Shown: positions 25,324 through 62,089, counted from the stretch's first letter. The stretch: DNA of 64,000 bases from Gemmatimonadota bacterium (GCA_041477065.1 JBGOUQ010000002.1:82033-146032), one strand, 5' to 3'. The notes: generated by a model not told the origin, from the letters alone. A program made the numbers and translations.

Positions 25324-27567
25324 CTAGGGCCGACGCAGCGCGAAGGTGCCGGGCTCCACATGGTCGCTGCACGTGCTGGACACTTGCAGCGTCCCGACGA
25401 GCAGCCGCCCGCCGTTGGCCTGGGCGCCAGCGCCCGTGATGGTCCCCTCACAGTGCTTGGCGGTAAAGATGAAAGGCGCCGTGAAAGTGAAGGCGTTTCC
25501 CTGGACGCGCGCGGCCACGGTGCCCGTGAGGTGAATGTCCACGAGCCCCAGGTCGCCGACGAGCGAGTCCCCGCTCGCGCGGAGCTCGAGCGTCGCCGGG
25601 TGGCTGTCGCGCTCGACGCGCAGCTCGCCGCTCCAGGTGCCGGGGAGCGAGCGCGCCAGCGTGTCGGGCCTGGGCATCCGGGGCCCGGGAAGACCGAACG
25701 CCAGCACGTAATCACCCAGGGTGGTCCGGAGCTCGGAGTGGCCGCCGGCGGCGATGACGACGTACTGGCGTCCATCCGCCAGGTAAGTCATCGGCAGGGC
25801 GTTCCCGCCTGCCGGCAGCGGCGCGCTCCACAGCTCGTGCCCCGTCTGCTCGTCGATCGCCCGCAACCGCAGGTCGTGCGTGCCGGCGACGAAGACGAGT
25901 CCACCCGCGGTCGCAAACGCCCCGCCGAGGCTCGGGCCGCCGGCGAGCGGGACCTGCCACTTCACCTTCCCGGCGCCGAGATCGAGAGCGGTAAGCTGAG
26001 TCCAAGGGGGCGGGTTGCAGGGCGTCCCCTTCGGTGTCAGCAGAGTCTCGCGCATCATCCCGAACGGCGTGCCGCGCATCGGGCTGATCTCGGTGCCCGG
26101 ATGAGCGCGGCGCGTGGGGCGGATCGAGTCGCGCGGAATCAGCGTCACCACCATCGCAAGCCGGTTGGAGGGCACGATGAGCAGGCCGCCACTCTCGTCC
26201 ACGGTGAGGCCCGACCAGTTGGCGCCGCCGATGTGGCCCGGATAGTGGATCGAGCCGCGCAGTGACGGCGGTGTGAAAATTCCGTCGGAGCGCAGGGCCG
26301 CGATGCGACTGCGGCACAGCTCCAGGTCCTGGGGCGTCGCGCCCCAGGCGTCGGAGGGCGGCAGGCTCTCGGGCACCAGGCGGAACGCGGCCGGCGGGAA
26401 CGGCTGCGTCGGCCACGTCTCCTCCCCGGGGACGTCGGTCTGCGGCACGGGACGCTCTTCCACCGGGAACAGCGGCGTCCCCGTGCGGCGGTCGAGGATG
26501 AAGATGTGCCCCATCTTGGTGCCGACGGCGAGGGCCGGGATCACGCGGCCGCCGCGACGCAAGGTGAAGACGACCGGCTGCGCGGGAACGTCATAGTCCC
26601 ACAGGTCGTGGTGCACCACCTGGAACGACCAGACGACCGCCCCCGACGACGCTCGGAGCGCGACCACCGAGTTGGCGTAGAGGTTCTGGCCGAGGCGCTC
26701 GCCGCCGAAGAAGTCGGGGCTGGCGCTGCCGACCGGCACGAACACCAGATCGGCCGCCGGGTCCGCCGAGAGCACGCTCCAGGCGTTGGCGGCGCCGGTC
26801 GAGTGGGCCCACGTCCCGCGCCAGGTGTCGTAGCCGGGGGCGCCGGGAGTGCGCGGCACGGGGTCCCAGCTCCAGCGCTCGGCACCGGTGCGCGCGTCGT
26901 AGGCACGGACCACACCGTTCGGCGCGTCCGTCCGGTTGTTGTCGCCCACCGCCGACCCGACGATCACCAGGTCCCCCACCACGGCGGGGGGTGAGGTCAC
27001 CTCGTACTCGCCCGGAAAGTCGGGGGCGTTGAGCAGGTCCCGCGTGAGATCGATCATCCCGTGGTCGGCGAAGTCCTCGCACGGCTGCCCCGTGGCGGCG
27101 TCCAGGGCGATGAGCCGCGCGTCGACGGTCCCGATGTAGATGCGGCGCCGGCAAACGGCATCAGCAGCGGCCCGGGCGTCCAGCCACGTCGAGACGCCGC
27201 GGCTCGCAAAGTCGCCGTAGTCGCCGTGCAGGTCGATGTGGGGATCGTACGCCCACCGCTCGGCGCCGGTCGCGGGGTCGAGCGCCACGACGCGGCTGAG
27301 CGAGGTGGACAGATAGAGCGTGCCGTCCACCACGATGGGCGTCGTCTCGAAACGCCCGCGGCCCGCGAGCATATCGCCGGTGCGGTACACCCAGACCAGC
27401 CGCAGTCCCGCGACATTCGCACGGCTGATCTGCTCCAGCGGTGCGAACCGCGTGCCGCCGGCGTCGCGGCCGTAAGCGGGCCAGTCGGTCGAGCTGGCGG
27501 CCGCCTGGCCCCGCCCCGGAGGGGGCAGAGCCAGAGCCACCGTAAGCGTAATGGCGAGAACCCTCAT
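25324..27567 (-). CDS. exported PQQ-dependent dehydrogenase (8-bladed propeller) with a C-terminal domain of about 120 aa that lacks a haem motif
   Basis: 747 aa. Signal peptide, then DWPAYGRDAGGTRFAPLEQISRANVAGLRLVWVYRTGD, typical of quinoprotein glucose/alcohol dehydrogenases. Repeated W-containing blades. ATGA overlap with the upstream gene. Confidence 0.8.
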   Translation of the reverse strand: MRVLAITLTVALALPPPGRGQAAASSTDWPAYGRDAGGTRFAPLEQISRANVAGLRLVWVYRTGDMLAGRGRFETTPIVVDGTLYLSTSLSRVVALDPATGAERWAYDPHIDLHGDYGDFASRGVSTWLDARAAADAVCRRRIYIGTVDARLIALDAATGQPCEDFADHGMIDLTRDLLNAPDFPGEYEVTSPPAVVGDLVIVGSAVGDNNRTDAPNGVVRAYDARTGAERWSWDPVPRTPGAPGYDTWRGTWAHSTGAANAWSVLSADPAADLVFVPVGSASPDFFGGERLGQNLYANSVVALRASSGAVVWSFQVVHHDLWDYDVPAQPVVFTLRRGGRVIPALAVGTKMGHIFILDRRTGTPLFPVEERPVPQTDVPGEETWPTQPFPPAAFRLVPESLPPSDAWGATPQDLELCRSRIAALRSDGIFTPPSLRGSIHYPGHIGGANWSGLTVDESGGLLIVPSNRLAMVVTLIPRDSIRPTRRAHPGTEISPMRGTPFGMMRETLLTPKGTPCNPPPWTQLTALDLGAGKVKWQVPLAGGPSLGGAFATAGGLVFVAGTHDLRLRAIDEQTGHELWSAPLPAGGNALPMTYLADGRQYVVIAAGGHSELRTTLGDYVLAFGLPGPRMPRPDTLARSLPGTWSGELRVERDSHPATLELRASGDSLVGDLGLVDIHLTGTVAARVQGNAFTFTAPFIFTAKHCEGTITGAGAQANGGRLLVGTLQVSSTCSDHVEPGTFALRRP

Positions 27568-50003: not shown

Positions 50004-50222
50004 ATGACCGCGATGCCGATGACCATGCCCGACCTGTTCAAAATGGAAGCGTGCTTCCCCGCCCGGCGTGACGTCCGGCCCCAGCACGGCGACGCCAAGT
50101 CGGCCCGCGAGTACTGCCTCCAGGACCCCGCCGGCCGGCCGATCGGCACGATCGCCGCGCCGGCAGATCAGCCGAGATTCGGGGCCGGAGCGCCGACGCT
50201 CCTCCTCAGACGGAAGGCCTGA
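50004..50222 (+). CDS. small hypothetical protein (72 aa)
   Basis: ATG preceded by GAGGAG at -12..-7. Codon third positions are almost all G/C, as in real genes here. It lies 80 nt upstream of the MacA-like gene. No family recognised. Confidence 0.4.
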   Translation: MTAMPMTMPDLFKMEACFPARRDVRPQHGDAKSAREYCLQDPAGRPIGTIAAPADQPRFGAGAPTLLLRRKA

Positions 50223-50301
50223 CCGCACCGGGCGCCTGAAACCTCCACCTTGGCCGCAGCGTCGAGAGAGGATAGTCTTCACCTTCCCTCGGAGCCCCGC
50301 C

Positions 50302-51411
50302 ATGAGAGCAGTCCCGCTGCTGCCGGCTCTGGCCGCCCTGGCGCTCGGCTGTACGTCCTCGCAAGCCCACGACAAGAACGCGCGCACCTACCGCGTCGGC
50401 GCCGCCGACCGCGGCGACGTCCGTGTGCTGGTCGAAGAGACGGGTGTCGTGGAGCCGGAGCGACAGATCGTCGTCAAGTCGCCGATTTCCGGCGTGGTGC
50501 AGCTGCTGTACGTCCGCGAGGGTGACCGGGTCGCGACCGGCGCCCCCCTCGCCCGCATCGTGCCCGACATTGCCCAAGCCAACGTGTTCGCCCAGCTGCG
50601 GAGCGGCCTCGCGCAAGCGGAGTTGCAGCGCGCCGTCGCCGAGCGCGAGTACCGCCGCGCCGAATCGCTCGCCCAGAGCAACGGCGTGACGCAGTCCGAG
50701 CTCGACCAGAAGCGCCTCATCTTCGAGCAGGCGGGAAGCCAGCTGCGAACCGCGCGCGAGCAGCTCACGCTCGTCCAGCAGAGCGGCGTAACGACGGGGG
50801 ACACGGCGCAGTGGGCCCGGGTGACCGCGCCCGTGGCCGGGGTGGTGATCCGGCGCGGCGTCGAAGCGGGTGAGACCGTGGTCGGCGGCACCAGCGCCTT
50901 CGGCGGCGGCACCGAGCTGTTCACGATCGCCGACCTCTCCTCGCTGCGCGTGAAGGCCGCGATCAATGAGGTGGACATCGGCAAAGTGCAGGCCGGCGAC
51001 AGCGTCGCGCTCACGGTGGATGCGTACCCCAGCGACACGGTGCTCGGCATCGTCCGCCTCGTGCCGCCCGCCGCCCGGCTCCAGGACCGGGTGCGCGTAT
51101 TCGACGTGGAGATCGCGGTCCGCGGGCGCAACACGGTGCTGAAGCCGGGGATGACGGCCAACGTCCGCATCGTCGGCCCGTCCCGACACGACGTCATCCG
51201 GGTTCCGGTGGAGGGGGTGTTCCTCTCCGAGGGCCAGCCGACGGTGTTCAAGCTGGTGGGCGGCACCCCGCGGCGGCTGCCGGTGCGGCTTGGCCTTTCG
51301 GACCTGTCCTACGCCGAGGTCCTCAGCGGCCTCGCTCCGGGCGACTCGATCGCGCTCGAGGACCCCGCGGTCGCCGCGGAACACGCCAGCAACCCGGCGC
51401 GGCGGCGCTGA
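50302..51411 (+). CDS. periplasmic adaptor (HlyD/MacA-type membrane fusion protein), lipoprotein
   Basis: Met 50302 inside ORF 50068..51411 (MRAVPLLPALAALALGC lipobox). SPISGVVQLLYVREGDRV, a coiled-coil hairpin, VTAPVAGVVIRRGVEAGE. Confidence 0.85.
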   Translation: MRAVPLLPALAALALGCTSSQAHDKNARTYRVGAADRGDVRVLVEETGVVEPERQIVVKSPISGVVQLLYVREGDRVATGAPLARIVPDIAQANVFAQLRSGLAQAELQRAVAEREYRRAESLAQSNGVTQSELDQKRLIFEQAGSQLRTAREQLTLVQQSGVTTGDTAQWARVTAPVAGVVIRRGVEAGETVVGGTSAFGGGTELFTIADLSSLRVKAAINEVDIGKVQAGDSVALTVDAYPSDTVLGIVRLVPPAARLQDRVRVFDVEIAVRGRNTVLKPGMTANVRIVGPSRHDVIRVPVEGVFLSEGQPTVFKLVGGTPRRLPVRLGLSDLSYAEVLSGLAPGDSIALEDPAVAAEHASNPARRR

Positions 51412-52091
51412 TGTCCGTTCCCCCGCTGATGGCCGCGCAGGGGATCGCGAAGACGTACCGCCTCGGCCGCGTGGATGTCCCCGCACTGCGCGGCGTGGAC
51501 GTCGCGATCGCGCCCGGCGAATTCGTCGCCATCGTCGGCCCTTCCGGCTCGGGCAAGAGCACCCTGATGCACATCCTCGGCTGTCTCGACACGCCGACCG
51601 CGGGCCGCTACGTGCTCGACGGCGAGGACGTGAGCGGGCTCTCCGGCCGCCGCCTGGCGCACGTGCGCAATCGCAAGGTCGGGTTCGTGTTTCAGACCTT
51701 CAATCTCATGCCGCGACTCACGGTCGAGGAAAACGTGGCCCTGCCGCTCAAGTACCGCGGCGGCGTGCCGCGCCGTGAGCGCCGCGCCCGCGCCCGCGCG
51801 CTGCTCGAGCGGCTCGGCCTGGGGCACCGCATCGGCCACCGGCCCGACGAGCTGTCCGGCGGCGAGCGCCAGCGCGTCGCGATCGCCCGCGCGCTGGTGG
51901 GGACCCCCGCGATCATCATGGCCGACGAGCCCACGGGGAACCTCGACTCGCACGCGGGGGGCGAGGTCATGCGCACGCTCGAGGAGCTGCACGCGCAGGG
52001 GCACACGATCCTGCTCGTCACGCACGACACACGGCTCGCCGAGCGGGCCCAGCGCCTCATTCAGATGGCCGACGGGAAAGTCGTGGCGTGA
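51411..52091 (+). CDS. ABC transporter ATP-binding protein (MacB/LolD type)
   Basis: Walker A GPSGSGKST, Q-loop, signature LSGGERQRVAIARAL, Walker B IIMADEPTGNLD, H-loop VTHD. Confidence 0.9.
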   Translation: MSVPPLMAAQGIAKTYRLGRVDVPALRGVDVAIAPGEFVAIVGPSGSGKSTLMHILGCLDTPTAGRYVLDGEDVSGLSGRRLAHVRNRKVGFVFQTFNLMPRLTVEENVALPLKYRGGVPRRERRARARALLERLGLGHRIGHRPDELSGGERQRVAIARALVGTPAIIMADEPTGNLDSHAGGEVMRTLEELHAQGHTILLVTHDTRLAERAQRLIQMADGKVVA

Positions 52092-53320
52092 ACCTGCTCG
52101 AATCCCTCGCCGCGGGACTGGACGAGGCCCGGCGCCACTGGGGTCAGACCGCGCTCTCCCTGCTCGGCCTCGTGCTGGGAACGGCCAGCATCGTCACCGT
52201 CCTCGCCCTGTTCGGCGGTCAGACCGCGCACACCCGGCGGTTCATCGAGGAAGTCGGCGGCGTGGGGACGATCATCGTCTCCAACCGCGACCTGCCGGCG
52301 CAGCCGAGAGCCCGGGACCTCGCGTCCAAGCGGCTCACCTACCCCGACGCCGTCCTGCTGAAGGCCCGGGCCACCGCGCTGTTCGCGGTGAGCCCCGGAT
52401 GGGCCAGTCAGCGCGACTATCGTGCCGGTGACCGCTCCTTCAGCGGCCAGGTCATCGGCACCGTTCCCGACTACGCGGTGATCAACGACATCCGGCCGCT
52501 GGTGGGCCGCTATCTGTCGGATCTGGACGTCGCCCGACGGGCGCGGGTCACGGTGCTCGGCTGGAAGTACGCCGACTCGCTGTTCGGAGCGGCGGCCGCC
52601 GCGTTGGGGCGCCGGCTGAGCATCGGCGGATTCGCCTACACCGTGGTCGGGGTGCTGGAGCGCGAGGAGTTCTACTTCGCTCCCTGGGCGGACAATTCTC
52701 TCGAGTACCGCAACGAGCGGGCGTACGTCCCGATCACAACCGCCATCGCGAACTACTCCCCCGAGGCGGGAGGTCGGCTCGACTTTCTGACGTTGAAGGC
52801 CCGGCCGTCCGAGGGCGTCACGGTCGCCCAGGCGCAGGTCGAACAGCTCTTGTACGCGCGCCACGGCGTGGAGGACTTCGACATCCGCCCGTCGGGCCAG
52901 GGCGCCGGTGGAGAGACCGGCCAGTTCTTCCAGCTCTTCAACTTCATCTTCCTGGTCGTCGGGGTGGTGTCGCTGTTCACCGGCGGCATCGTGATCGCCA
53001 ACATCTTCCTCGCGTCCGTGGTCGAGCGCGTGCGTGAGTTCGGCACGCGGATGGCGCTCGGCGCCACGGGTCTCGGGGTCTTCACGCACGTCCTGGCCGA
53101 GGTGTTGTTCGTCGCGGTGCTCGGCGGGCTGGCCGGGCTGGGCCTCGGCGCGGCGCTGACGGGGACCGTCGCCAAGGTGATGCAGCTCCCCGCCGCCGTG
53201 ACACCGCTGATGGCGAGCGTCGCGCTCGCGACGTCCCTCACCGTCGGCCTCCTCGCCGGCCTGTACCCGGCCTGGCGGGCGGCGCGGCTTTCCCCGGTGG
53301 AGGCGCTGCGCTATGGCTGA
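52088..53320 (+). CDS. ABC transporter permease (MacB_PCD plus FtsX domain)
   Basis: 410 aa. N-terminal TM, a large periplasmic domain, and a C-terminal FtsX-like 3-TM bundle (ERVREFGTRMALGAT). Ends with PAWRAARLSPVEALRYG. Confidence 0.85.
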   Translation: MNLLESLAAGLDEARRHWGQTALSLLGLVLGTASIVTVLALFGGQTAHTRRFIEEVGGVGTIIVSNRDLPAQPRARDLASKRLTYPDAVLLKARATALFAVSPGWASQRDYRAGDRSFSGQVIGTVPDYAVINDIRPLVGRYLSDLDVARRARVTVLGWKYADSLFGAAAAALGRRLSIGGFAYTVVGVLEREEFYFAPWADNSLEYRNERAYVPITTAIANYSPEAGGRLDFLTLKARPSEGVTVAQAQVEQLLYARHGVEDFDIRPSGQGAGGETGQFFQLFNFIFLVVGVVSLFTGGIVIANIFLASVVERVREFGTRMALGATGLGVFTHVLAEVLFVAVLGGLAGLGLGAALTGTVAKVMQLPAAVTPLMASVALATSLTVGLLAGLYPAWRAARLSPVEALRYG

Positions 53321-54581
53321 CCTGCGCGCGCGCCTCCTCGCCGCCGGGGAGCTTGTGGAGGACGCGTTCCGCGAGATCCGCGCCCACCCCATGCGCTCCC
53401 TGCTCACGCTGTCGGGGATCGTGTTCGGAGCGGCCTCGCTCGTCTCCATGACGGCGCTGGCGAACGCCACGAAGGCGATGGCCTACCGCGACCTGATCGA
53501 CATGGGGCTGCCGCGCAGCTTCACCGCGGCGGACCGCGGGCCGCGCTCGGATGCGCGGACGGCGCGGGACCGCCGGCATGCGGGGCTGCGCCTCGCCGAT
53601 GCAGCGGCGCTCCAGGCGCTCCCGGGAGTCGAGGCCGTCCAGCCGCGCAACTGGGGAGGCGAGCAGGTGGTGGTGGGGCCGGCGGGACGGCGCGACGTGC
53701 CCCTCGACGGCGTGGACGCCGGCTACCTCGAGGCCCATCACTACATCATCACCGCCGGCCGCAGTCTCCGCGACCTGGACGTGGCGAACCGGTCTCGCGT
53801 CGCCGTGATCGGCGCCGATCTGCTGCACGACCTGTTCGGGGCGGCTCAGCCGCTCGGCCAGACGATCACCGTGAACAAGGTCCGCTTCCGCGTGGTGGGC
53901 GTGGTGCGCCAGCCCACGTTCGAGATCGCCCCGGTGAACTTCTCCTGGGTGGCCCGGCGCGTCTACGTCCCGTACAGCTACGTCACCCGCTACTATCGGG
54001 GCGAGGGACGGGTGGATCAGGTCACGGTGACGGCCGCCCCCGAGGTCGATTTCGCGACCGTGCTGCAGGACGGGCGCGCTCGGCTGCGCCAGCGGCACGG
54101 CGGCACCGAGGACTTCGAGATCGAGAATGACGCCGCCGAGGTAGCGAGCGACCTGCGGATGGCGGACAACATTCTGGGCGGCTGGAACGCCGTGATGTAC
54201 GCGATCGCGTTCGTGACCCTGCTCGTCGGCGGCATCGGGCTGTTTTCCGTGCTGCTGATCTCGGTGCGCGAGCGCGTCCGCGAGATCGGGATCCGCAAGG
54301 CGCTGGGCGCGGACGACGGCGAGATCCTGCGCCTGTTCCTCACCGAGTCCCTGACGCTGGCCGCGACCGGGGCGGTGGTCGGGGTGGTGGGGGGCGCCGG
54401 TCTGGTCCTCTTGACCGAGGCCATCAGCCGGCAGTTCGGGCGAAATTTCGTGATCACCGTGACGCCCCCCGGCATCGTCCTGGGGATCGTATTCGCCCTC
54501 CTGGTGGGGCTGGTGTTCGGCTGGTATCCGGCCCGGCGCGCCGCGAAGCTCGACCCCGTCGAGGCGATGAGCGGAGTCTAG
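53313..54581 (+). CDS. ABC transporter permease (MacB_PCD plus FtsX domain), paralogue of the previous gene
   Basis: 422 aa with the same architecture (ERVREIGIRKALGA, YPARRAAKLDPVEAM). 8-nt overlap with the upstream permease gene. Confidence 0.85.
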   Translation: MADLRARLLAAGELVEDAFREIRAHPMRSLLTLSGIVFGAASLVSMTALANATKAMAYRDLIDMGLPRSFTAADRGPRSDARTARDRRHAGLRLADAAALQALPGVEAVQPRNWGGEQVVVGPAGRRDVPLDGVDAGYLEAHHYIITAGRSLRDLDVANRSRVAVIGADLLHDLFGAAQPLGQTITVNKVRFRVVGVVRQPTFEIAPVNFSWVARRVYVPYSYVTRYYRGEGRVDQVTVTAAPEVDFATVLQDGRARLRQRHGGTEDFEIENDAAEVASDLRMADNILGGWNAVMYAIAFVTLLVGGIGLFSVLLISVRERVREIGIRKALGADDGEILRLFLTESLTLAATGAVVGVVGGAGLVLLTEAISRQFGRNFVITVTPPGIVLGIVFALLVGLVFGWYPARRAAKLDPVEAMSGV

Positions 54582-54599: not shown

Positions 54600-55910
54600 C
54601 TACGCCGCCGACAGGCTGCGCGACCCCATCTGCACCCCGATGCTCTCGAGAAATGCCGACGGCGGCGTGCCACCGGCGAACACCCACACGTAGTCATTCG
54701 GAACTTCTCTCCGGGTCCCCTGGGCCTCGATCACAACGCTGCCCGCGCGCACTTCGAGCGGTGCGGAGCTGAAACAGACGGCGATCTGGCGGCGCCGGAT
54801 CGCCTCCGCGATCCGCTCCTCGTTCCTCCCCTTGAGACGGGTGAAGGCCTCCTTGCGATAGGACATGGTGACTTTATTCCCCCGCTGGTGCGCGAGGCCG
54901 AGGGCTGCTTCCACGGCGCTGTCGCCGCCACCCACCACGAGGATCCGATTGTCCCGGTAGCTCTCGGCGTCGATCAGGTGATACATCACCTTGGGCAGCT
55001 CTTCGCCCGGGATGTCGAGCTTGCGTGGCGTCCCCCGCCGGCCGATCGCCAGGATCACGTTGCGGGCGCGGTAGCTCCCCTGGGAAGTCTCGATCGTGAA
55101 GCCTCCGTTCGATTCCGGGCGGATGCGGTCCACCCGCTCGCCGGTGCGGATCCTGACGCGGGTGTCCCGCACGACCTTCGCCCACAGGTCGAGCAGAGCT
55201 TCTTTCGATATCTCCAGCTTCTTGAACTTGCCGTAGAGCGGCAGCTCGAACGGGCTCGTGAGCACTAGTTTCTGCCGGGGATACTTCGCGACGCTGCCTC
55301 CGAGCTCCTCCTGCTCGAGCGTGAGGTAGGACAGTCCGAGCTCGTGCGCCCGGAGTGACGCGCTCAAGCCCGCCGGCCCGGCGCCGACCACGCACACATC
55401 GACGATCCCCCCGCCGTTTCCAGTCCGGCCGTGAGCCAAGCGCCGGGCCAACGTGTCGACGGCATCGCGCCCCTGGTTGATGGCGTTCTTGACCAGGGCC
55501 AGGCCGCCGAGCTCGCCGACCACGAAAAGTCCGGGGACGCTCGACTCCAGCTCGGGAGTCAGGAACGGGGTGTCCGCGGACACGCTGGGCGGCGCCATGA
55601 CGATCTGGATCGCGCCGACCGGGCACGCATCGGCGCACAGCCCGTGTCCGATGCACTTCTGGGGGTTCACGAGGGCCGCTTTTCCGCCGACCACCGCCAG
55701 CACCTCGCCTTCGGGGCAGACCCTGACGCACGCCCCGCAGCCGATGCAGTGGGAGATGTCGATGCGCGGGTGCTGGGCGCGCGGGCCTTCCTGCAGCACG
55801 CGCGCGCGGGAGGCGGCGTCACGCGCCGCCGCCTCGCGGCGGCGGAAGCGACGCAGCTGCCGCCACAGAGCGAGCACGAGAATCGCCGCCACTCCGAGAT
55901 TGAAGAGCAT
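54600..55910 (-). CDS. membrane-anchored 2x[4Fe-4S] ferredoxin domain fused to an FAD/NAD(P)-binding (thioredoxin-reductase-like) oxidoreductase
   Basis: ORF 54600..55961 (GTG 55961; ATG 55910 gives MLFNLGVAAILVLALW as an N-terminal TM). CIGCGACVRVCP and CIGHGLCADACP cluster motifs. Dinucleotide folds VCVVGAGPAGLSA and ILVVGGGDSAVEAA. Confidence 0.75.
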   Translation of the reverse strand: MLFNLGVAAILVLALWRQLRRFRRREAAARDAASRARVLQEGPRAQHPRIDISHCIGCGACVRVCPEGEVLAVVGGKAALVNPQKCIGHGLCADACPVGAIQIVMAPPSVSADTPFLTPELESSVPGLFVVGELGGLALVKNAINQGRDAVDTLARRLAHGRTGNGGGIVDVCVVGAGPAGLSASLRAHELGLSYLTLEQEELGGSVAKYPRQKLVLTSPFELPLYGKFKKLEISKEALLDLWAKVVRDTRVRIRTGERVDRIRPESNGGFTIETSQGSYRARNVILAIGRRGTPRKLDIPGEELPKVMYHLIDAESYRDNRILVVGGGDSAVEAALGLAHQRGNKVTMSYRKEAFTRLKGRNEERIAEAIRRRQIAVCFSSAPLEVRAGSVVIEAQGTRREVPNDYVWVFAGGTPPSAFLESIGVQMGSRSLSAA

Positions 55911-56175
55911 GAGTCCCGATGCCTCCAGGCGTCCGACCCGACGCCGTGCGTCGTGGATCACAATCTCTGTCGTCGATCACACAATTCGCGGTCACGCGTT
56001 TGTGAATCGATTCGATGCAGCATGATCCGCAACGAGTCAGATCCACAAACGGCCGGCTCACACTCGGGAATCGGAAAACTCCCGGTGCGCAACGCGTTCG
56101 CTCATTTCTCGGTGCAGGGCGTGGTCCTTGCGTGTCGCACGCCGCGTGCCGCGGCACTCCGATCGTTCCGCCACC

Positions 56176-57174
56176 ATGACCGCGCTCCTGCGCCCCAGCC
56201 CGGTCGGCGTGCAAGCACCCGACACACGATTCGCGTCCCCGCCCGGACGCGTCTCGGGTGACCTGCGGGTCTCAGGCGGCGTCCGAGTTTCCGGCGGCAC
56301 CGAAGCCCCGGCCCGCGCGGCGCGGCGACGCTGGTTGCTGCTCGGGTTGATCCTGTTGGGCGGGATCACCCTCCTGGGCTCCCCGTACTACTTCGCCCCC
56401 GCCGCGGATCGCGTGCGCTCGCCGCTGCACCCCTGGCTGCGGCCGTCCGGATACGTCGGCCAGGCGGCGGGGATTCTCTCGCTCGTGATCTTCGTGAGCT
56501 TGTGGCTCTATCCGCTGCGACGGCGGCTCCGCTGGCTTTCCTTCACGGGCACCATGGCGCAATGGCTGAATGCGCATGTGGCGCTCGCCCTCCTCCTGCC
56601 GCTCCTCGCCGCGGTACACGCCAGCTGGCATTTCCGCGGCGTGATCGGACTTGGCTATGACGCGATGCTCGCGGTGTGGCTGAGCGGAATGGTCGGGCGG
56701 TACCTCTATGTCCGGATCCCGCGCAGCAAGACGGGCCTCGAGCTCGGCGCCGAGGAGCTGGCCAAGACGCGCCATGCACTGCTGGGCGAAATCGCCAAGC
56801 GCTCGCGGATGCCCGTGGAAGAGATCCAGACGATCCTGGGAGACGACCCCTGGCCCTGCGAAGGGCTCGGACTGGGGGCGACCCTACGGCAGCTCGTCTC
56901 CGATGACTTCGCCCGGTGGCGGGCGACCCGCGTGCTGGCGCGGACGGTCGCCGCCCGGGCGGGCGGGCGGCTAGACCGCGGCACCCTGCGCCGGGTCCGC
57001 AAGCTCGCCCGGCGCGAGATGTCTCTGACCCAGCAGGCACGGATGCTCGCCGGAACGCAGCGCCTGTTCCGGTTCTGGCACGTGGTGCACCGGCCGTTCG
57101 CGATCGCAGCGCTCGTCGCGGTGCTGGTGCACGTCACCGTGGCGGTGGCGATGGGCGCCACCTGGCTGTGGTGA
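56176..57174 (+). CDS. 5-TM membrane protein with two H-x13-H helices (dihaem cytochrome-b-like) and a soluble insert of about 130 aa
   Basis: Met 56176 inside ORF 56128..57174. TM helices include NAHVALALLLPLLAAVHASWH and WHVVHRPFAIAALVAVLVHV. No family recognised by eye. Confidence 0.65.
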   Translation: MTALLRPSPVGVQAPDTRFASPPGRVSGDLRVSGGVRVSGGTEAPARAARRRWLLLGLILLGGITLLGSPYYFAPAADRVRSPLHPWLRPSGYVGQAAGILSLVIFVSLWLYPLRRRLRWLSFTGTMAQWLNAHVALALLLPLLAAVHASWHFRGVIGLGYDAMLAVWLSGMVGRYLYVRIPRSKTGLELGAEELAKTRHALLGEIAKRSRMPVEEIQTILGDDPWPCEGLGLGATLRQLVSDDFARWRATRVLARTVAARAGGRLDRGTLRRVRKLARREMSLTQQARMLAGTQRLFRFWHVVHRPFAIAALVAVLVHVTVAVAMGATWLW

Positions 57175-57180
57175 GGCGGC

Positions 57181-58878
57181 GTGCGACGTGGTCTATCGCT
57201 CGGCCTCTTCCTCCTGCTCCACGCGCCGGCCGTGAGCGCCCAGATCTCCCCCGGCCCGCTGGCGCGGGCGCACGCCTCGCTCGAGGGCGCGCTCCGCTGC
57301 ACGACCTGCCATACGGGGGGGCGCCAGGCCCTCTCCGCCAACTGCCTCGCCTGCCACAAGGACATCGGCTGGCTCGTCCAGCGGGAGCGCGGATTCCACG
57401 CCTCGACGGGAGGCGCAACCTGCGCCTCCTGCCACCCCGACCACGCCGGGGAGTCGTTCGCGTTGATCAAGTGGCCGGAGGGCGACTCGGAGCACTTCGA
57501 TCACACCCGTGCCGGGTGGCCGCTCGACGGGCGCCATGCGCGCGCGACCTGCGCCGATTGCCATACGGCCAAGTACCGCGTCTCCGAAGCCACATTGCTC
57601 TCCGTCCGGAAGACCGGCGCTGGGTGGACGGGGCTCGAGCGCACGTGCACCGCCTGTCACGAGGATCCGCATCGGGGCGCGCTCGACCACACGTGCGTCA
57701 CATGCCATGACACCAACCGCTGGCACGAAACCCCGCGGTTCGACCACGTGCGGACCCGCTACCCGTTGACCGGCAAGCATGCGGCCGTGGCGTGCGACAA
57801 GTGCCACCTCGACGCCCGGCTCGGCCTGCGCGCCGACGCCCGGGGCAGGCCGGTGCCGCTGTTTCGACCGCTCGCCTTCGGCCAGTGCTCGGCATGCCAC
57901 ACCGACCCCCACGCAGGCCGGCTCGGGCCCAAATGCGCCGCCTGTCACGTGACCGGAGGGTTCAAGGTGTTCGAAGCGGCGAGCTTCGATCACGAGCGCA
58001 CGCACTACCCGCTGCGCGGGGCCCATCAGCGGGTGTCCTGCGAGGGCTGCCACGATTTCTCCGACCGTCCGGGCGCGCGCCGCAATCCGGTCGCCTTCGC
58101 CGCCTGCGGCGACTGCCATAAGGACCCCCACGGCGCCACGGCCACCCTTGCCGGAAGAGTGGTGGACTGCAGCGCCTGCCACGACCTCGCGGCCTTCACA
58201 CCGTCCACGTTCACCGCGGTGCGTCACCGCGATGCCCGCTATCCCCTCGAGGGGCGCCACGCGGCCGTTCGCTGCGCCGATTGCCACGTGAAAACACCGG
58301 CGACGGCCGGCGGCCTGTGGGGGACGGCCCGCGTCGTGATCCGGCCGCCCTATGCCCGCTGCCGCGACTGTCACACCGACGATCCGCATCGGGAGCGCAC
58401 CGAGCAGGACTGCCGCGATTGCCACGACCTGCACGGGTACCGCCCGTCGACCGTGACCGTCGGGGCGCACCTGAAATACCGCTTCGCGCTCGAAGGGGCG
58501 CACCGGGCCGTTCCGTGCGCGGGGTGCCACCGCGAAATCCAAACGGTGGCTGCGGGGCCCCGAACGGCCGCCGGGGGCCTGTTCCCACCCCTGCGATTCA
58601 GCGCCCCTCAGACGTGCGCCCAATGCCACACCGGCCCTCACGGGGGGCAGTTCGCCGCGCGGGCGGATGGAGGTCGATGCGACGCTTGTCACGACCCCGA
58701 CGTCTGGCGGCCGGCGGCGCGCTTCGATCACGACCGCGACGCCACGTTTTCGCTGAAGGGTGCGCACACCGGCGTCCCCTGCCAACGCTGCCACCGGCCG
58801 GCCGGCCCGGGCTTGGACCGCATCTACCGGCCGGTCACCGCGAAGTGCGAGAGCTGCCACGGATCGGAGGCAAGATGA
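57181..58878 (+). CDS. exported multihaem cytochrome c, 20 CxxCH motifs (c7/c3-type repeats)
   Basis: 565 aa. Signal peptide MRRGLSLGLFLLLHAPAVSAQ. I counted 20 CxxCH motifs. The recurring unit is FDH..T.YPL.G.H..V.C..CH. Confidence 0.9.
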   Translation: MRRGLSLGLFLLLHAPAVSAQISPGPLARAHASLEGALRCTTCHTGGRQALSANCLACHKDIGWLVQRERGFHASTGGATCASCHPDHAGESFALIKWPEGDSEHFDHTRAGWPLDGRHARATCADCHTAKYRVSEATLLSVRKTGAGWTGLERTCTACHEDPHRGALDHTCVTCHDTNRWHETPRFDHVRTRYPLTGKHAAVACDKCHLDARLGLRADARGRPVPLFRPLAFGQCSACHTDPHAGRLGPKCAACHVTGGFKVFEAASFDHERTHYPLRGAHQRVSCEGCHDFSDRPGARRNPVAFAACGDCHKDPHGATATLAGRVVDCSACHDLAAFTPSTFTAVRHRDARYPLEGRHAAVRCADCHVKTPATAGGLWGTARVVIRPPYARCRDCHTDDPHRERTEQDCRDCHDLHGYRPSTVTVGAHLKYRFALEGAHRAVPCAGCHREIQTVAAGPRTAAGGLFPPLRFSAPQTCAQCHTGPHGGQFAARADGGRCDACHDPDVWRPAARFDHDRDATFSLKGAHTGVPCQRCHRPAGPGLDRIYRPVTAKCESCHGSEAR

Positions 58879-60122
58879 AGCACGTCGCCGCGCTGGTCTG
58901 CGGGCTCCTGCTGTGCGCTCGCGGCGCCCGCGCGCAGGGCACGACCCGGTCGCCTCACGGCCCGCTCTCTGTCGAGTGCGCCGTGTGTCACCGTCCCGAA
59001 AGCTGGACCGCCATCCGGAGCGACAAGTTCGACCACGGTAAAGCCGGGTGGCCGCTCGAGGGAGCCCACGCGCAGGTCGCCTGCCGCACCTGCCACAAGT
59101 CGTTGGACTTCAAGGGGGCGCCGCGCGCCTGCGCCGGCTGCCACGAAGACCTGCACCGGGGCGAGCTCGGCAACGACTGCGTGCGGTGCCACACGCCGCG
59201 CAGCTTCCAGGACCGTACGGCGATGGTGCGGGCCCACGCGACCACGCGCTTCCCACTGGACGGCGCCCACACCGTCGCGGACTGCCAGGCCTGCCACAAG
59301 TCCGCGGCCCAGGGCGCCCTTGCGTTCGTCGGCAGCCCGACGCGCTGCGAGGACTGCCATATGCCCAGCTACGTGGCGACCTCGAACCCTAACCACCGGG
59401 CCGCCTCGTATCCGACCGATTGCATCAGCTGTCACGTCACCTCCACCTGGGCGCGGGCCCGGTTCGACCACAGCGCGTCGGGCTTCCCGCTGACCGGGGC
59501 CCACGCCGCGGTCGCCTGCGACCAGTGCCACAAGAACAACCGGTTCAACGGCACGCCGACCGCTTGCGTGGCGTGTCACCAGACCGACTACAACGGGACG
59601 ACCGACCCGGCTCACGGGAACGCCGGCTTCTCCACGAGCTGCGAGTCCTGCCATACGACCGCGACCTGGCAGGGCGCCAAGTTCAACCACAACGCGTCCG
59701 GCTTCCCGCTGACCGGGGCACACACCGCGGTGGCGTGCGATCAGTGTCACAAGAACGGGCGGTTCAGCGGAACGCCGACCACCTGTGTGGCGTGCCACCA
59801 GACCGACTACAACGCCACCACCGACCCTGCCCACGTGAGCGCGGGCTTCTCCACGAGCTGCGAGTCCTGTCATACGACCACGACTTGGCAAGGCGCCAAG
59901 TTCGACCACGATGCCCAGTTCTTCCCGGTCTACTCGGGGGTGCACCGCGGCCGGTGGTCTTCCTGCTCGGACTGCCACACCGTGGCCAACGACTTCTCGC
60001 AGTTCACCTGCGCCAAGTGCCACACTCCAGCGGGGATGGCGAGCAAGCATCGGGGCGTCTCGGGCTTCGGGCCGAACCCGCAGGACTGCCTGCGCTGTCA
60101 CCCCACCGGGCGGGCAGGATGA
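58875..60122 (+). CDS. exported multihaem cytochrome c, 16 CxxCH motifs
   Basis: ATG 58875 inside ORF 58281..60122 (ATGA overlap with the upstream stop). Signal MKHVAALVCGLLLCARGARAQ. I counted 16 CxxCH motifs. Contains an internal 73-aa tandem duplication. Confidence 0.9.
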   Translation: MKHVAALVCGLLLCARGARAQGTTRSPHGPLSVECAVCHRPESWTAIRSDKFDHGKAGWPLEGAHAQVACRTCHKSLDFKGAPRACAGCHEDLHRGELGNDCVRCHTPRSFQDRTAMVRAHATTRFPLDGAHTVADCQACHKSAAQGALAFVGSPTRCEDCHMPSYVATSNPNHRAASYPTDCISCHVTSTWARARFDHSASGFPLTGAHAAVACDQCHKNNRFNGTPTACVACHQTDYNGTTDPAHGNAGFSTSCESCHTTATWQGAKFNHNASGFPLTGAHTAVACDQCHKNGRFSGTPTTCVACHQTDYNATTDPAHVSAGFSTSCESCHTTTTWQGAKFDHDAQFFPVYSGVHRGRWSSCSDCHTVANDFSQFTCAKCHTPAGMASKHRGVSGFGPNPQDCLRCHPTGRAG

Positions 60123-61738
60123 GGGGCCGCGTCGCGGCAGTCTTGCTCGCGGGCTTGCTCTTCGCGGGAACGGGGTGGGCGCAGGGGGTGGCGGGGGGCA
60201 GCCCGCCCCAAGCCCTTCCTCCCCGCGTCGCGCAGGTCACCTACGTCACCGGCGATCAGGTGTACGTGAGCGCGGGACGGCTGGACGGGCTCGCCGAGGG
60301 ACGCGAGCTGCAGGTGGTGCGCGGCCGGAGCGACTCGGTCGTCGCCACGCTGCAAGTGCTGTACGTCTCGTCGCACCAGTCGGCGTGCAAGATCGCGCGC
60401 GGCGCGGCGGACGTAGCGGCCGGCGATCGGGTGCGGTACACCTCGGCGGTCGTCGTGGCGGCGGCGCCCGCGCCCACCGGCGCTCCGGCGGCCGGGGCTC
60501 CGGCGCGGTCCTCGCCCCGGGGGCGGAGCAGTCCGGGGCTGCATGGCCGCGTCGCGGCGCGGTACGTCTGGACGCGCGAGATCGGGATCGGGCGATTCGC
60601 GCAGCCCGCGTTCGACGCGCGGCTCATGGGTGTCGGCCTCGGCGGAACGGCGCTCGGGCTCGTCGCGGATGTCCGGGGTCGCGCCACCATGTCGTCGCTG
60701 GTCGCCGGCAGCTCGCTGGGTGACGGCCAGACGGACGTGTACCAGCTCGCGCTGTTGTGGAACCAGCCCGGCGCGCCGGTCCGGATGGCGATCGGCCGCC
60801 AGTATCTGACGACGGTGTCTTCGATCGTGCTGCTCGACGGCGTATTGAGCGAGGTGAGCAGCCAGCGGGTCGGCCTCGGCGTGTTCGGCGGCGCGGAGCC
60901 GGCTCCCGACGGCTTCGGGTTTTCGGCCGCGGTACGGGACTACGGCGGGTACCTGCAGCTGCGCAGCGCCCGGGGGTCGAGCGCGCCCTGGATGATCACC
61001 ACCGGGGTGGTCGGCTCCTATCGGTCGGGGCTCGCCAACCGGGAGTTCGGCTTCCTGCAGGCGAGCTACTCGAGCCGGGCCTTCACCTTCAACGCGTCCC
61101 AGGAAGTGGACTACTACCGCTCGGTGAAGCAGGCGGCCGGGGAGCCGCGGGTCTCCTTCACGAGCAGCTACGTGAGCGCTTCGCTCCATCCCGGCGCGCT
61201 GCGACTCGATGCCGGGGTCAACAGCCGGCGCAACGTCCGGTTGTACAGTGACGTCGCCAACCCCATCACGGCGTTCGACGATCGGTACCGTCGCGCCGCA
61301 TGGGGCGCGGTGGGCCTGTCCGGCCGACGTCTGCGGTTCCGCGTCGAGGGTCGCACCACCGGTGGAGGCACCTCCGGGCGGGCGACGGCGCTCACCGCTT
61401 CAGTCGGCGCCGACCGTGTCGCCCCGTTCAATCTGGGTGTCTCTGCGCGGGTCACGCGCTATCGCTCCACGCTCATCGCGGGGGAAACCAGCGGATGGCT
61501 GGAGAGCGTCCGCCTCGGCGCCGATCCCATCGCCCCGCTGCACCTCGAGCTCACGGGCGGCGAGCGGCGGGAAGCGAATCCCCTGCTCTCACCGGGCCTG
61601 CGTCGCACCGTCTGGTACGGCGGGGAGGCGGACGTTGGGATCGCCCGCGCGTGGTTCCTGCTCGCATCCGCGAATCGCGAGACCGGACCCGATGGACCGC
61701 TCGATCAAGCGTACGTGAGTCTCAGCTACCGCTTCTGA
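60119..61738 (+). CDS. exported protein, probable outer-membrane beta-barrel (C-terminal ...LSYRF)
   Basis: ATG 60119 inside ORF 59420..61738 (ATGA overlap). Signal MRGRVAAVLLAGLLFAGTGWAQG. A small N-terminal beta domain, an Ala/Pro-rich linker, then about 400 aa of alternating-pattern sequence ending in Y-R-F. Confidence 0.7.
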   Translation: MRGRVAAVLLAGLLFAGTGWAQGVAGGSPPQALPPRVAQVTYVTGDQVYVSAGRLDGLAEGRELQVVRGRSDSVVATLQVLYVSSHQSACKIARGAADVAAGDRVRYTSAVVVAAAPAPTGAPAAGAPARSSPRGRSSPGLHGRVAARYVWTREIGIGRFAQPAFDARLMGVGLGGTALGLVADVRGRATMSSLVAGSSLGDGQTDVYQLALLWNQPGAPVRMAIGRQYLTTVSSIVLLDGVLSEVSSQRVGLGVFGGAEPAPDGFGFSAAVRDYGGYLQLRSARGSSAPWMITTGVVGSYRSGLANREFGFLQASYSSRAFTFNASQEVDYYRSVKQAAGEPRVSFTSSYVSASLHPGALRLDAGVNSRRNVRLYSDVANPITAFDDRYRRAAWGAVGLSGRRLRFRVEGRTTGGGTSGRATALTASVGADRVAPFNLGVSARVTRYRSTLIAGETSGWLESVRLGADPIAPLHLELTGGERREANPLLSPGLRRTVWYGGEADVGIARAWFLLASANRETGPDGPLDQAYVSLSYRF

Positions 61739-61750
61739 CGGGGAGGCACC

Positions 61751-62089
61751 ATGGCCGGCATCCGGTGGATTCCGACGGCGCACGACCCGCACAAAATGAT
61801 CGCGGAAGCGACGCTCCAGGCGTTGCGCGCGGTCCTGACCGCCACACGTCCGTCGCTGCCCGGAGTGCGAGACGGGACCGCCGTCGAGCCGGTGACCATT
61901 CGGGTGGAGGATCACCCGATCCTGTCGGAGGTCGGCGGTGTCGCTCGCGTGGGCCGGGTGGCAGTGGCGCGGATCAGCCGGGCGAGCTTCGTAGCGTATG
62001 AAATGGACCTGGCGGGACTTCACGAGCTGCCGGTGGAGAACGACCCCGCGGCGGGCCTGCTGCGGGTCCGCCGGGGCCGGCAGGTTTGA
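61751..62089 (+). CDS. hypothetical protein (112 aa)
   Basis: ATG preceded by GGAGG. GC-rich third positions. Lies 12 nt after the beta-barrel gene. No family recognised. Confidence 0.45.
   Translation: MAGIRWIPTAHDPHKMIAEATLQALRAVLTATRPSLPGVRDGTAVEPVTIRVEDHPILSEVGGVARVGRVAVARISRASFVAYEMDLAGLHELPVENDPAAGLLRVRRGRQV

Follow-up and report, generated by a model that had tools for sequence, protein, structure and literature searches.

A candidate PCC3-type porin–cytochrome conduit with an associated iron–sulphur flavoprotein in Gemmatimonadota

Gene content of the locus

The DNA analysed here is a 64-kb stretch (64,000 nucleotides, hereafter the window; JBGOUQ010000002.1:82033-146032, with about 70% G+C throughout) of the genome of a Gemmatimonadota bacterium (GCA_041477065.1). 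Towards its end, the window contains a cluster of five genes, denoted A to E, that encode a membrane-anchored iron–sulphur (FeS) flavoprotein, a predicted di-haem b membrane protein, two secreted multihaem cytochromes c (MHCs) and a predicted outer-membrane barrel, and that are followed by a small gene, F. The cluster matches a PCC3-type porin–cytochrome module, the core architecture of which has been known since 2017. PCC3 was defined purely from genomes (He et al. 2017, Front Microbiol 8:1584, PMC5566968) and consists of a porin, an 'extracellular' MHC (median of 34 haems), a 'periplasmic' MHC (median of 21 haems) and a conserved, hypothetical inner-membrane protein (IMP) of about 300 amino acids (aa). 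The IMP signature, which is common to PCC3 and PCC4, comprises five transmembrane helices (TMs), the motif SGXXG on TM4 and the motif WX3HX13H on both TM3 and TM5 (PMC5566968). The features of the locus are the following (positions are counted from the first letter of the window):

54600..55961, minus strand: gene A, a protein with an N-terminal TM helix, a ferredoxin-like domain and a TrxR-like/YpdA-like FAD and NAD(P)H domain
55713..55748, minus strand: first FeS motif of A, CIGCGACVRVCP, canonical CxxCxxCxxxCP
55620..55655, minus strand: second FeS motif of A, CIGHGLCADACP, CxxHxxCxxxCP
55962..56175, no strand assigned: intergenic region between the divergent genes A and B, where promoters are presumed from the gene positions
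56176..57174, plus strand: gene B, a 332-aa protein with five TMs, of which TM4 and TM5 are separated by a helical insert (about 120 aa) in the cytoplasm
56563..56619, plus strand: WX3HX13H motif of B on TM3, WLNAHVALALLLPLLAAVH
56683..56697, plus strand: SGXXG motif of B on TM4, SGMVG
57076..57132, plus strand: WX3HX13H motif of B on TM5, WHVVHRPFAIAALVAVLVH
57181..58878, plus strand: gene C, a 565-aa secreted cytochrome c with 20 CxxCH motifs
58875..60122, plus strand: gene D, a 415-aa secreted cytochrome c with 16 CxxCH motifs
59421..59858, plus strand: two tandem 73-aa three-haem repeats in D, 79% identical to each other
60119..61738, plus strand: gene E, a 539-aa protein with a signal peptide, a small beta domain (residues 36-107), a disordered linker and a barrel (residues 142-538)
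61751..62089, plus strand: gene F, a 112-aa protein without a signal peptide, starting 12 bases past E

For most of the locus, the reading frames agree with a preliminary description of this DNA that had been made from the sequence. Gene B lies on the plus strand, ends at 57174 and encodes five TMs; C starts with the GTG at 57181 and contains exactly 20 CxxCH motifs; D starts with the ATG at 58875, which forms an ATGA overlap with the stop codon of C, and contains 16 such motifs; and E starts with the ATG at 60119, again in an ATGA overlap, encodes 539 aa beginning with a signal peptide and ends with AYVSLSYRF. Gene A, on the minus strand at 54600-55961, likewise encodes a TM-anchored protein, with matches to Fer4 and to the two-dinucleotide-fold families Pyr_redox_3/Pyr_redox_2 and with two GxGxxG/A motifs. 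Two details have to be corrected. Both ferredoxin motifs of A had been read as CxxCxxCxxxCP, which holds for the first one, whereas the second is CxxHxxCxxxCP; and the end of the cluster had been placed at 61738, about 350 bases too early, given that the conserved gene F follows E.

Two of the start codons allow a choice. The start of B is most likely the ATG at 56176 (332 aa), which is also used by the database gene call, and not the TTG at 56128, whereas A possibly starts with the ATG at 55910 (436 aa, the length of the homologue in locus L001) instead of the GTG at 55961 (453 aa). A consensus scan of the A/B intergenic region found no sigma-70-like site, and the promoter and terminator scans yielded nothing above chance. 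Genes C and D are the only reading frames in the window with at least two CxxCH motifs; the density of this motif is about 35 per 1000 aa in the two genes versus 0.036 in the window background, that is, about 1000 times higher.

The encoded proteins and their conservation

Protein A matches, above the respective thresholds, Pyr_redox_3 (5e-46; 157.8 bits with the cut-off at 30) and Pyr_redox_2 (90.1 bits); it also matches Fer4 families, and the GxGxxG/A motifs are located at residues 193 and 344. The nearest solved structures for the flavodomain are YpdA/Bdr (7a7b, E-value 5.8e-28) and TrxR-like ferredoxin-NADP reductases; YpdA/Bdr are NADPH-dependent enzymes. The scores of A stay below the equivalog cut-offs of both YpdA (TIGR04018, 170.2 versus 339.9 bits) and TrxR (TIGR01292, 71.9 versus 343.45 bits), a redox-active CxxC is found in the flavodomain of none of the 73 homologues, and A differs from the YpdA and TrxR families by the additional TM helix and FeS domain. 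The N-terminal helix is followed by a run of arginines, so that the remainder of the protein should be cytoplasmic. In the second FeS motif, histidine replaces the second cysteine in all 73 homologues, which suggests a His-ligated [4Fe-4S] cluster or a [3Fe-4S] cluster, possibly the one through which electrons exit toward B. In one clade (represented by P0235, P0224 and P0232), A contains a zinc-ribbon-like CxxC...CxxC insert between the TM helix and the FeS domain. These three proteins were also considered as B-A fusions of the Rosetta-stone type and were rejected: they are frameshift read-throughs in high-GC DNA, in which TM5 of B is replaced by out-of-frame low-complexity sequence before A resumes.

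Protein B is predicted to be a di-haem b subunit, namely the IMP of the PCC3/PCC4 type. In an alignment of 27 sequences, six histidines are invariant (H85, H134, H148, H302, H305 and H319), and so are the motifs W130-x3-H134-x13-H148 on TM3, S170-G-x-x-G174 on TM4 and W301-x3-H305-x13-H319 on TM5. The distribution of charges, interpreted by the positive-inside rule, places the N-terminus, the loop between TM2 and TM3 and the TM4-TM5 insert in the cytoplasm, so that both histidine pairs are in register across the membrane. This is the classical arrangement of two stacked b-haems. None of the Pfam or NCBIfam models matches B at normal thresholds; when the 27 members were scanned against Pfam at permissive thresholds, weak matches were obtained to DUF4405 (21 of the 27), Ferric_reduct (18) and Ni_hydr_CYTB (16), and two distant relatives carry precomputed matches to PF01794 or PF14358. 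The label 'dihaem-b-like' that B had received in the preliminary description is thus backed by the invariant H-x13-H pairs, the two parallel helices that carry them and the consistent, if sub-threshold, matches to haem-b families.

Both cytochromes match Cytochrome_C7 and Cytochrom_c3_2 in Pfam and contain enough histidines for bis-His ligation. Protein C has 28.2 aa per haem, 46 histidines and c7-type units of three haems, and is predicted to be a periplasm-spanning wire. Protein D is slightly denser (26 aa per haem) and richer in small residues (29% of threonine, serine, asparagine and glycine together, versus 21% in C), and is predicted to be the distal, outer-face cytochrome. Among the relatives, the number of haems in C is 23 in most loci and 20 in the clade of the window, and that in D ranges from 9 to 51, varying via the three-haem repeats.

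The suggestion that the last gene encodes an outer-membrane protein, which had been based on its terminal aromatic residue, is corroborated by structure prediction. The AF2 model of E, built from a 39-sequence alignment, has a pLDDT of 83 and a pTM of 0.75 and contains about 22 long antiparallel strands that extend from residue 142 to the C-terminal phenylalanine. The protein ends with a beta-signal (...YVSLSYRF), of which R538 and F539 are at least 90% conserved. A Foldseek search starting from this model retrieves outer-membrane barrels alone, with the PapC/FimD ushers first, followed by AlgE and the Occ porins, at TM-scores of 0.3-0.4. There is no match of E to any Pfam family; the N-terminal domain shows a weak likeness to FlgT_C in 10 of the 39 members. 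All 89 detectable relatives of E are annotated as hypothetical proteins, and those with a named source come from metagenome-assembled genomes (MAGs) of Gemmatimonadales. Several E homologues (P0020, P0037, P0043, P0079, P0082 and others) have 650-810 aa, which is 100-270 aa more than the protein from the window, and one of these, P0020, carries a FlgT_C domain match.

Protein F has no match in Pfam. It is 33-41% identical to the products of the genes after E in three other loci (L001, L003 and L005), and a gene of this kind is found after E in 19 loci. Its position directly behind E is conserved in part of the Gemmatimonadales, and F seems to be an accessory that is specific to this clade.

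Compared with E, B is better conserved and has a much broader distribution, with more than 1,000 close relatives and 2,508 cluster representatives at an E-value of 1e-3 or lower in a library of 1.84 billion proteins; the B superfamily amounts to about 2,500 clusters at 50% identity. A genome scan identified B relatives in 214 species-level genomes, of which the 80 closest loci were examined; co-occurrence was assessed by tblastn of the five window proteins against 85 loci. All five genes are jointly present in about 80 genomes, nearly wherever the contig extends far enough, and the flanking genes are unrelated. The preliminary description had called for a survey of the gene order across genomes; the gene set is conserved in these loci. 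The hosts are mostly Gemmatimonadales, but the module is found also in Acidobacteriota, Krumholzibacteriota, Calditrichota-like lineages and on a plasmid of Emticicia oligotrophica. The order of the genes differs between lineages, with the following arrangements:

A transcribed divergently from B-C-D-E: most Gemmatimonadales, as well as the window
B-A-C-D-E, all on the same strand: a second clade of Gemmatimonadales, and MAGs of Krumholzibacteriota, Eisenbacteria, Myxococcales and Acidobacteriota
A transcribed divergently from B-C, followed by D-E in inverted orientation: several loci of Gemmatimonadales
B-C-D-E-A: MAGs of two Acidobacteria
A-B-C-D-E in a single operon: a more distant clade with a B of about 290 aa, from Calditrichota/Zixibacteria-like sources

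The Emticicia case is of particular relevance because E. oligotrophica DSM 17448 is a cultured member of the Bacteroidota. A tblastn search of plasmids yielded this copy and, apart from it, weak matches. Here the module is located on the 100-kb plasmid pEMTOL02 (locus L088, NC_018749.1 81299-89995; EMTOL_RS21090-21110), in the order ccsA, B (281 aa), A (440 aa), C (23 haems), D (40 haems), E (538 aa) and a gene for a GW-domain protein; the plasmid location suggests horizontal mobility. Genes for cytochrome c maturation adjoin the module in some of the genomes, namely CcmE in L003 and L004 and ccsA in Emticicia. A periplasmic terminal reductase was looked for and does not accompany the module in a constant way across the loci, a point on which the preliminary description had made its proposal depend.

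Several further gene sets were noticed around the module in other genomes. An ACIII/Psr-like set, consisting of a molybdopterin oxidoreductase, 4-haem and 5-haem cytochromes, Fer4_11 and NrfD subunits, lies upstream of A in L004/L025, L012, L028-L030, L033-L035, L050 and L051; it is not constant and is missing from the window. A second set of multihaem cytochromes (about 8, 18 and 16 CxxCH motifs), accompanied by CcmE, is encoded just upstream of A in many Gemmatimonadales loci (L010, L015, L016, L023, L027, L032, L036, L074 and L003/L009); this set is not constant either and is likewise absent from the window. Distant B-like proteins of about 250 aa (E-value of about 1e-3) are encoded on plasmids of Methylophaga pinxianii (L089, 3968-7322) and Legionella pneumophila (L090, 3911-7382), where the gene sits between that for a '2Fe-2S iron-sulfur cluster-binding protein' of about 620 aa and that for a small cytochrome c or a hypothetical protein. 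Given this gene context, the two plasmid loci may represent a minimal version of the same FeS protein, haem b and cytochrome c logic.

The other genes in the window encode peptidases, a GH3 glycosidase, a PQQ dehydrogenase, kinases and an ABC efflux system. Directly upstream of A, at 50068-54581 on the plus strand, there are four genes that, judged from sequence features, encode a MacAB-type efflux-like set (an HlyD-like adaptor, an ABC ATPase and two FtsX/MacB-like permeases); these genes are not kept beside the module in the other loci. The PQQ-dependent dehydrogenase (25324-27567, minus strand; PF01011, 1.7e-220) is encoded about 27 kb upstream of the module. PQQ-dependent dehydrogenases are periplasmic enzymes that require an electron acceptor.

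A possible path of electrons and its alternatives

Taken together, these observations are best compatible with the hypothesis that the locus encodes a PCC3-type porin–cytochrome conduit joined to a dedicated cytoplasmic NAD(P)H input enzyme, a reading to which we assign a probability of roughly 0.6. Protein A, fixed to the inner membrane by its single helix with the other domains in the cytoplasm, would pass electrons from NAD(P)H via FAD to two FeS clusters, one of them probably His-ligated. Protein B would then carry the electrons to the periplasmic face of the membrane through two stacked b-haems, with H134 and H305 near the cytoplasm and H148 and H319 near the periplasm. The 20-haem chain of C would take them across the periplasm, and the 16 haems of D, together with the barrel of E with its approximately 22 strands, would provide their passage through the outer membrane toward an acceptor outside the cell, for which Fe(III) or Mn(IV) minerals, humics and possibly O2 are candidates. 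In this scheme, A and B would work like an NADPH oxidase or a ferric reductase divided over two proteins, of which B would hold haem b and A would supply the site for flavin and NAD(P)H.

The choice of A as the cytoplasmic partner of B follows from gene order: A adjoins B in every arrangement, often inside the operon, so that the partner is most likely A and not the quinone pool. The outward direction follows from thermodynamics. Electrons that pass from NAD(P)H (about -320 mV) to bis-His c-haems move downhill, and their outward flow runs with the membrane potential, whereas the reverse flow to NAD(P)+ is uphill on both counts. The surrounding genes, which are those of a heterotroph, agree with this direction. 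The interpretation of the locus as a trans-envelope electron conduit, put forward in the preliminary description, is supported by the predicted barrel, by the conserved gene set with its differing flanks and by the lack of a constantly attached terminal reductase; from the features described above we infer electron transfer and its direction, along with haem b binding by B, the contact between A and B, the surface exposure of D, the identity of the electron donor and that of the cytochrome that would occupy the barrel of E. The narrower proposition that export bypasses quinones entirely, with A and B taking electrons straight from cytoplasmic NAD(P)H, can be advanced only tentatively.

Several observations speak against the conduit with NAD(P)H input. 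The matches of B to DUF4405, Ferric_reduct and Ni_hydr_CYTB all lie below threshold; in particular, the gathering threshold of PF01794 is missed, with a best E-value of 0.043 in the family and a score of 9.6 bits, versus a cut-off of 28, for the protein from the window. The AF2 model of B shows five helices at moderate confidence (pLDDT of 74 overall and 55-80 in the membrane part), and a Foldseek search with this model against the PDB finds nothing significant (best E-value of 0.19), so that the haem-b assignment rests on the motifs together with the sub-threshold Pfam matches. For E, a search of the family profile against PDB sequences finds nothing, including any MtrB chain. The PCC3 class was still called functionally unverified in 2025, and the published PCC3 models send electrons inward, to quinone. 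Protein D has an ordinary Sec-type signal peptide and no lipobox. Finally, in a Krumholzibacteriota MAG (L043, 9001-13076), B-A-C is present alone, with 20 haems in C and with neither D nor E downstream, which shows that the part of the module in the inner membrane and periplasm can occur without an exit through the outer membrane.

The last two observations would also be accounted for if the system were confined to the periplasm, that is, if A, B and C, with or without D, formed an NAD(P)H-driven reductase or electron store that, similarly to MsrQ, serves soluble periplasmic substrates (metals, oxyanions or oxidised proteins), while E housed no cytochrome and functioned as an ordinary channel or assembly factor. 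Pairs of an IMP and an MHC without a porin are, moreover, numerous (He et al., PMC5566968), and the fold of E resembles generic porins and ushers at low TM-scores (0.3-0.4). This explanation is weakened by the translational coupling of E to D through the ATGA overlap and by the finding that, in different phyla, almost all complete loci contain E as well as the cytochromes, even where D and E are inverted as a pair. The dimensions of the barrel are relevant here as well. TonB-dependent transporters are barrels of about 22 strands that enclose a plug of about 150 residues; E, which falls into this plug-enclosing size class, could hold a haem wire. On balance, confinement to the periplasm appears unlikely.

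The same components could, alternatively, serve for electron uptake, such that extracellular donors (Fe(II), minerals or partner cells) would supply D, E and C with electrons and B would deliver these to the quinone pool or, via A, to NAD(P)+. Uptake is the published PCC3 model for iron oxidisers, multihaem wires are reversible in principle, and the closest relative of the window (L006) is a metagenome-assembled Gemmatimonadetes genome. However, the location of A inside the operon in many lineages makes it a more likely partner of B than quinone, and the reduction of NAD(P)+ with electrons from Fe(II) would be strongly uphill and directed against the membrane potential. Furthermore, the PCC3 genes of Sideroxydans ES-1 are down-regulated on Fe(II), and the rest of the window, with its peptidases, glycosidase and PQQ dehydrogenase, gives no sign of lithotrophy. 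Emticicia oligotrophica, which carries the module, is an isolate from warm spring water that is not known as an iron oxidiser. Uptake thus seems improbable for the cluster in the window, unless B also interacts with quinone.

That the genes are chance neighbours or reading-frame artefacts, of which high-GC DNA yields many in the form of long spurious open reading frames, can be dismissed because all five proteins have tens to thousands of homologues, the density of CxxCH in C and D is about 1000-fold over the window background, and synteny across phyla with unrelated flanks excludes chance adjacency for practical purposes.

The known systems of extracellular electron transfer (Mtr, Pcc/Ext, Cyc2 and flavin-based transfer) all connect, to our knowledge, to the quinone pool. 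If the proposed conduit, fed by an NAD(P)H-type flavoprotein via a membrane subunit with two b-haems, is real, it would wire metabolism to the outside in a different way, one that would be closer to the eukaryotic NOX/FRE enzymes than to respiratory chains. In hosts that are mostly aerobic heterotrophs, such as Gemmatimonadales and Emticicia, such a system would not be classical respiration; it could be a redox valve, a bacterial counterpart of eukaryotic surface ferric reductases that would reduce Fe(III), Mn(IV) or humics for acquisition, or a source of extracellular superoxide. In that case, PCC3 clusters in general might serve for export and not for iron oxidation. Since 2017, PCC3 has figured in the literature as a candidate iron oxidase, and the linkage to an FeS flavoprotein provides a concrete biochemical hypothesis. 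The module is not rare and resides largely in soil and sediment phyla (Gemmatimonadota and Acidobacteriota) whose role in iron, manganese and humic redox processes is poorly known; the plasmid copy in the cultured strain DSM 17448 of Emticicia oligotrophica makes this bacterium a possible experimental host.

Relation to known systems

The MtrCAB, MtoAB and PioAB systems resemble the cluster in that a periplasmic MHC and an outer-membrane barrel (in Mtr, also an outer-face MHC) are encoded together. The individual parts differ, as the preliminary description had already noted for MtrA and MtrB: the cytochromes have 20 and 16 haems, and the family models are missed by wide margins. C and D score 36.3 and 33.3 bits, respectively, against DmsE/MtrA (TIGR03508, cut-off of 192.2), D scores 18.6 bits against OmcA/MtrC (TIGR03507, cut-off of 209.3), and E does not match MtrB_PioB (PF11854), with a single hit at an E-value of 0.06 among the 39 family members. 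The Mtr cytochromes contain 10 and 10 haems, and the barrel of MtrB has 26 strands compared with about 22 in E. The entry point at the inner membrane is also different, being the quinol oxidase CymA in Mtr, as opposed to a flavoprotein and a predicted haem-b protein here.

The Geobacter Pcc (OmaB-OmbB-OmcB) and Ext systems similarly combine a co-encoded porin with periplasmic and outer-face MHCs that contain c7-like units. The haem numbers are 8 and 12 in the Geobacter Pcc cytochromes versus 20 and 16 in the cluster; the ExtN/ExtO models yield a marginal match (E-value of about 1e-3) that is far below the cut-off, and the inner-membrane partners in Geobacter (ImcH, CbcL and CbcBA) are quinol-linked.

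For the inner-membrane part, the closest analogy is with the eukaryotic and bacterial NADPH oxidases (NOX), the ferric reductases (FRD, PF01794) and MsrQ, which share with B the H-x13-H pairs on the parallel TM3 and TM5. In NOX and FRD, two b-haems, as predicted for B, conduct electrons across the membrane to its outer side from a cytoplasmic site for flavin and NAD(P)H, and the single TM helix of A followed by cytoplasmic domains mirrors TM6 of NOX followed by the dehydrogenase domain. The differences are, nevertheless, substantial. Here the functions are distributed between two polypeptides; B has five TMs instead of six, an insert of about 120 aa in the cytoplasm and no flavin domain; an FeS domain is placed between flavin and haem; the flavodomain of A is of the TrxR/YpdA type rather than the FNR type; and the proposed acceptor is a chain of multihaem cytochromes instead of O2 or Fe(III) directly.

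Among the porin–cytochrome classes, PCC4 shares with the cluster an IMP with the same five TMs and motifs, and its subgroup II has an FeS gene beside the IMP gene (PMC5566968). Unlike the cluster, PCC4 lacks a large or variable MHC and instead encodes three small ones in the periplasm, with 4, 5 and 10 haems; its FeS protein belongs to pfam13247 (Fer4_11), in contrast to the combination of Fer4 and Pyr_redox in flavoprotein A.

The similarity to PCC3, which has been reported from Alpha-, Beta- and Gammaproteobacteria as a four-gene cluster, concerns all four of its components. Examples of PCC3 are Slit_0867-0870 and Slit_1446-1449 of Sideroxydans lithotrophicus ES-1 and the cluster of Leptothrix cholodnii SP-6 (PMC5566968); in Gallionellaceae, later work has found periplasmic MHCs with 21, 24 or 27 haems and extracellular MHCs with 10-35. 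Protein B carries the complete IMP signature, residue for residue, and B-C-D-E are contiguous in the same relative order of IMP, large MHC, variable MHC and porin. The number of haems in C is nearly fixed (20 or 23, at 28.2 aa per haem in the window), compared with the published 21-27 haems at 22-39 aa per haem, whereas D is variable (9-51), built from repeats and rich in small residues. Finally, about 22 strands are predicted for E, as they are for the PCC3 porin of Leptothrix cholodnii. Judged from these published descriptions, the cluster in the window is likely to be homologous to proteobacterial PCC3.

The differences are confined to a few points: many PCC3 porins are much larger than E, with up to 42 strands; the TM-anchored protein A, with its Fer4 and FAD/NAD(P)H domains, is always present here; and the hosts are Gemmatimonadota, Acidobacteriota, Krumholzibacteriota, Calditrichota-like lineages and Bacteroidota. 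The 2017 paper (PMC5566968) makes no mention of FAD, a flavoprotein or 4Fe-4S, and a literature search for Gemmatimonadota in connection with PCC3, or for a flavoprotein-linked PCC3, found nothing. The preliminary description had suggested that the cluster may be an uncharacterised variant. The architecture is not entirely without precedent, as it matches that of PCC3, a match that the preliminary description had missed. Three features are absent from the work on PCC3, namely the strictly co-conserved FeS flavoprotein A, the presence of the module in Gemmatimonadota and other phyla, and gene F.

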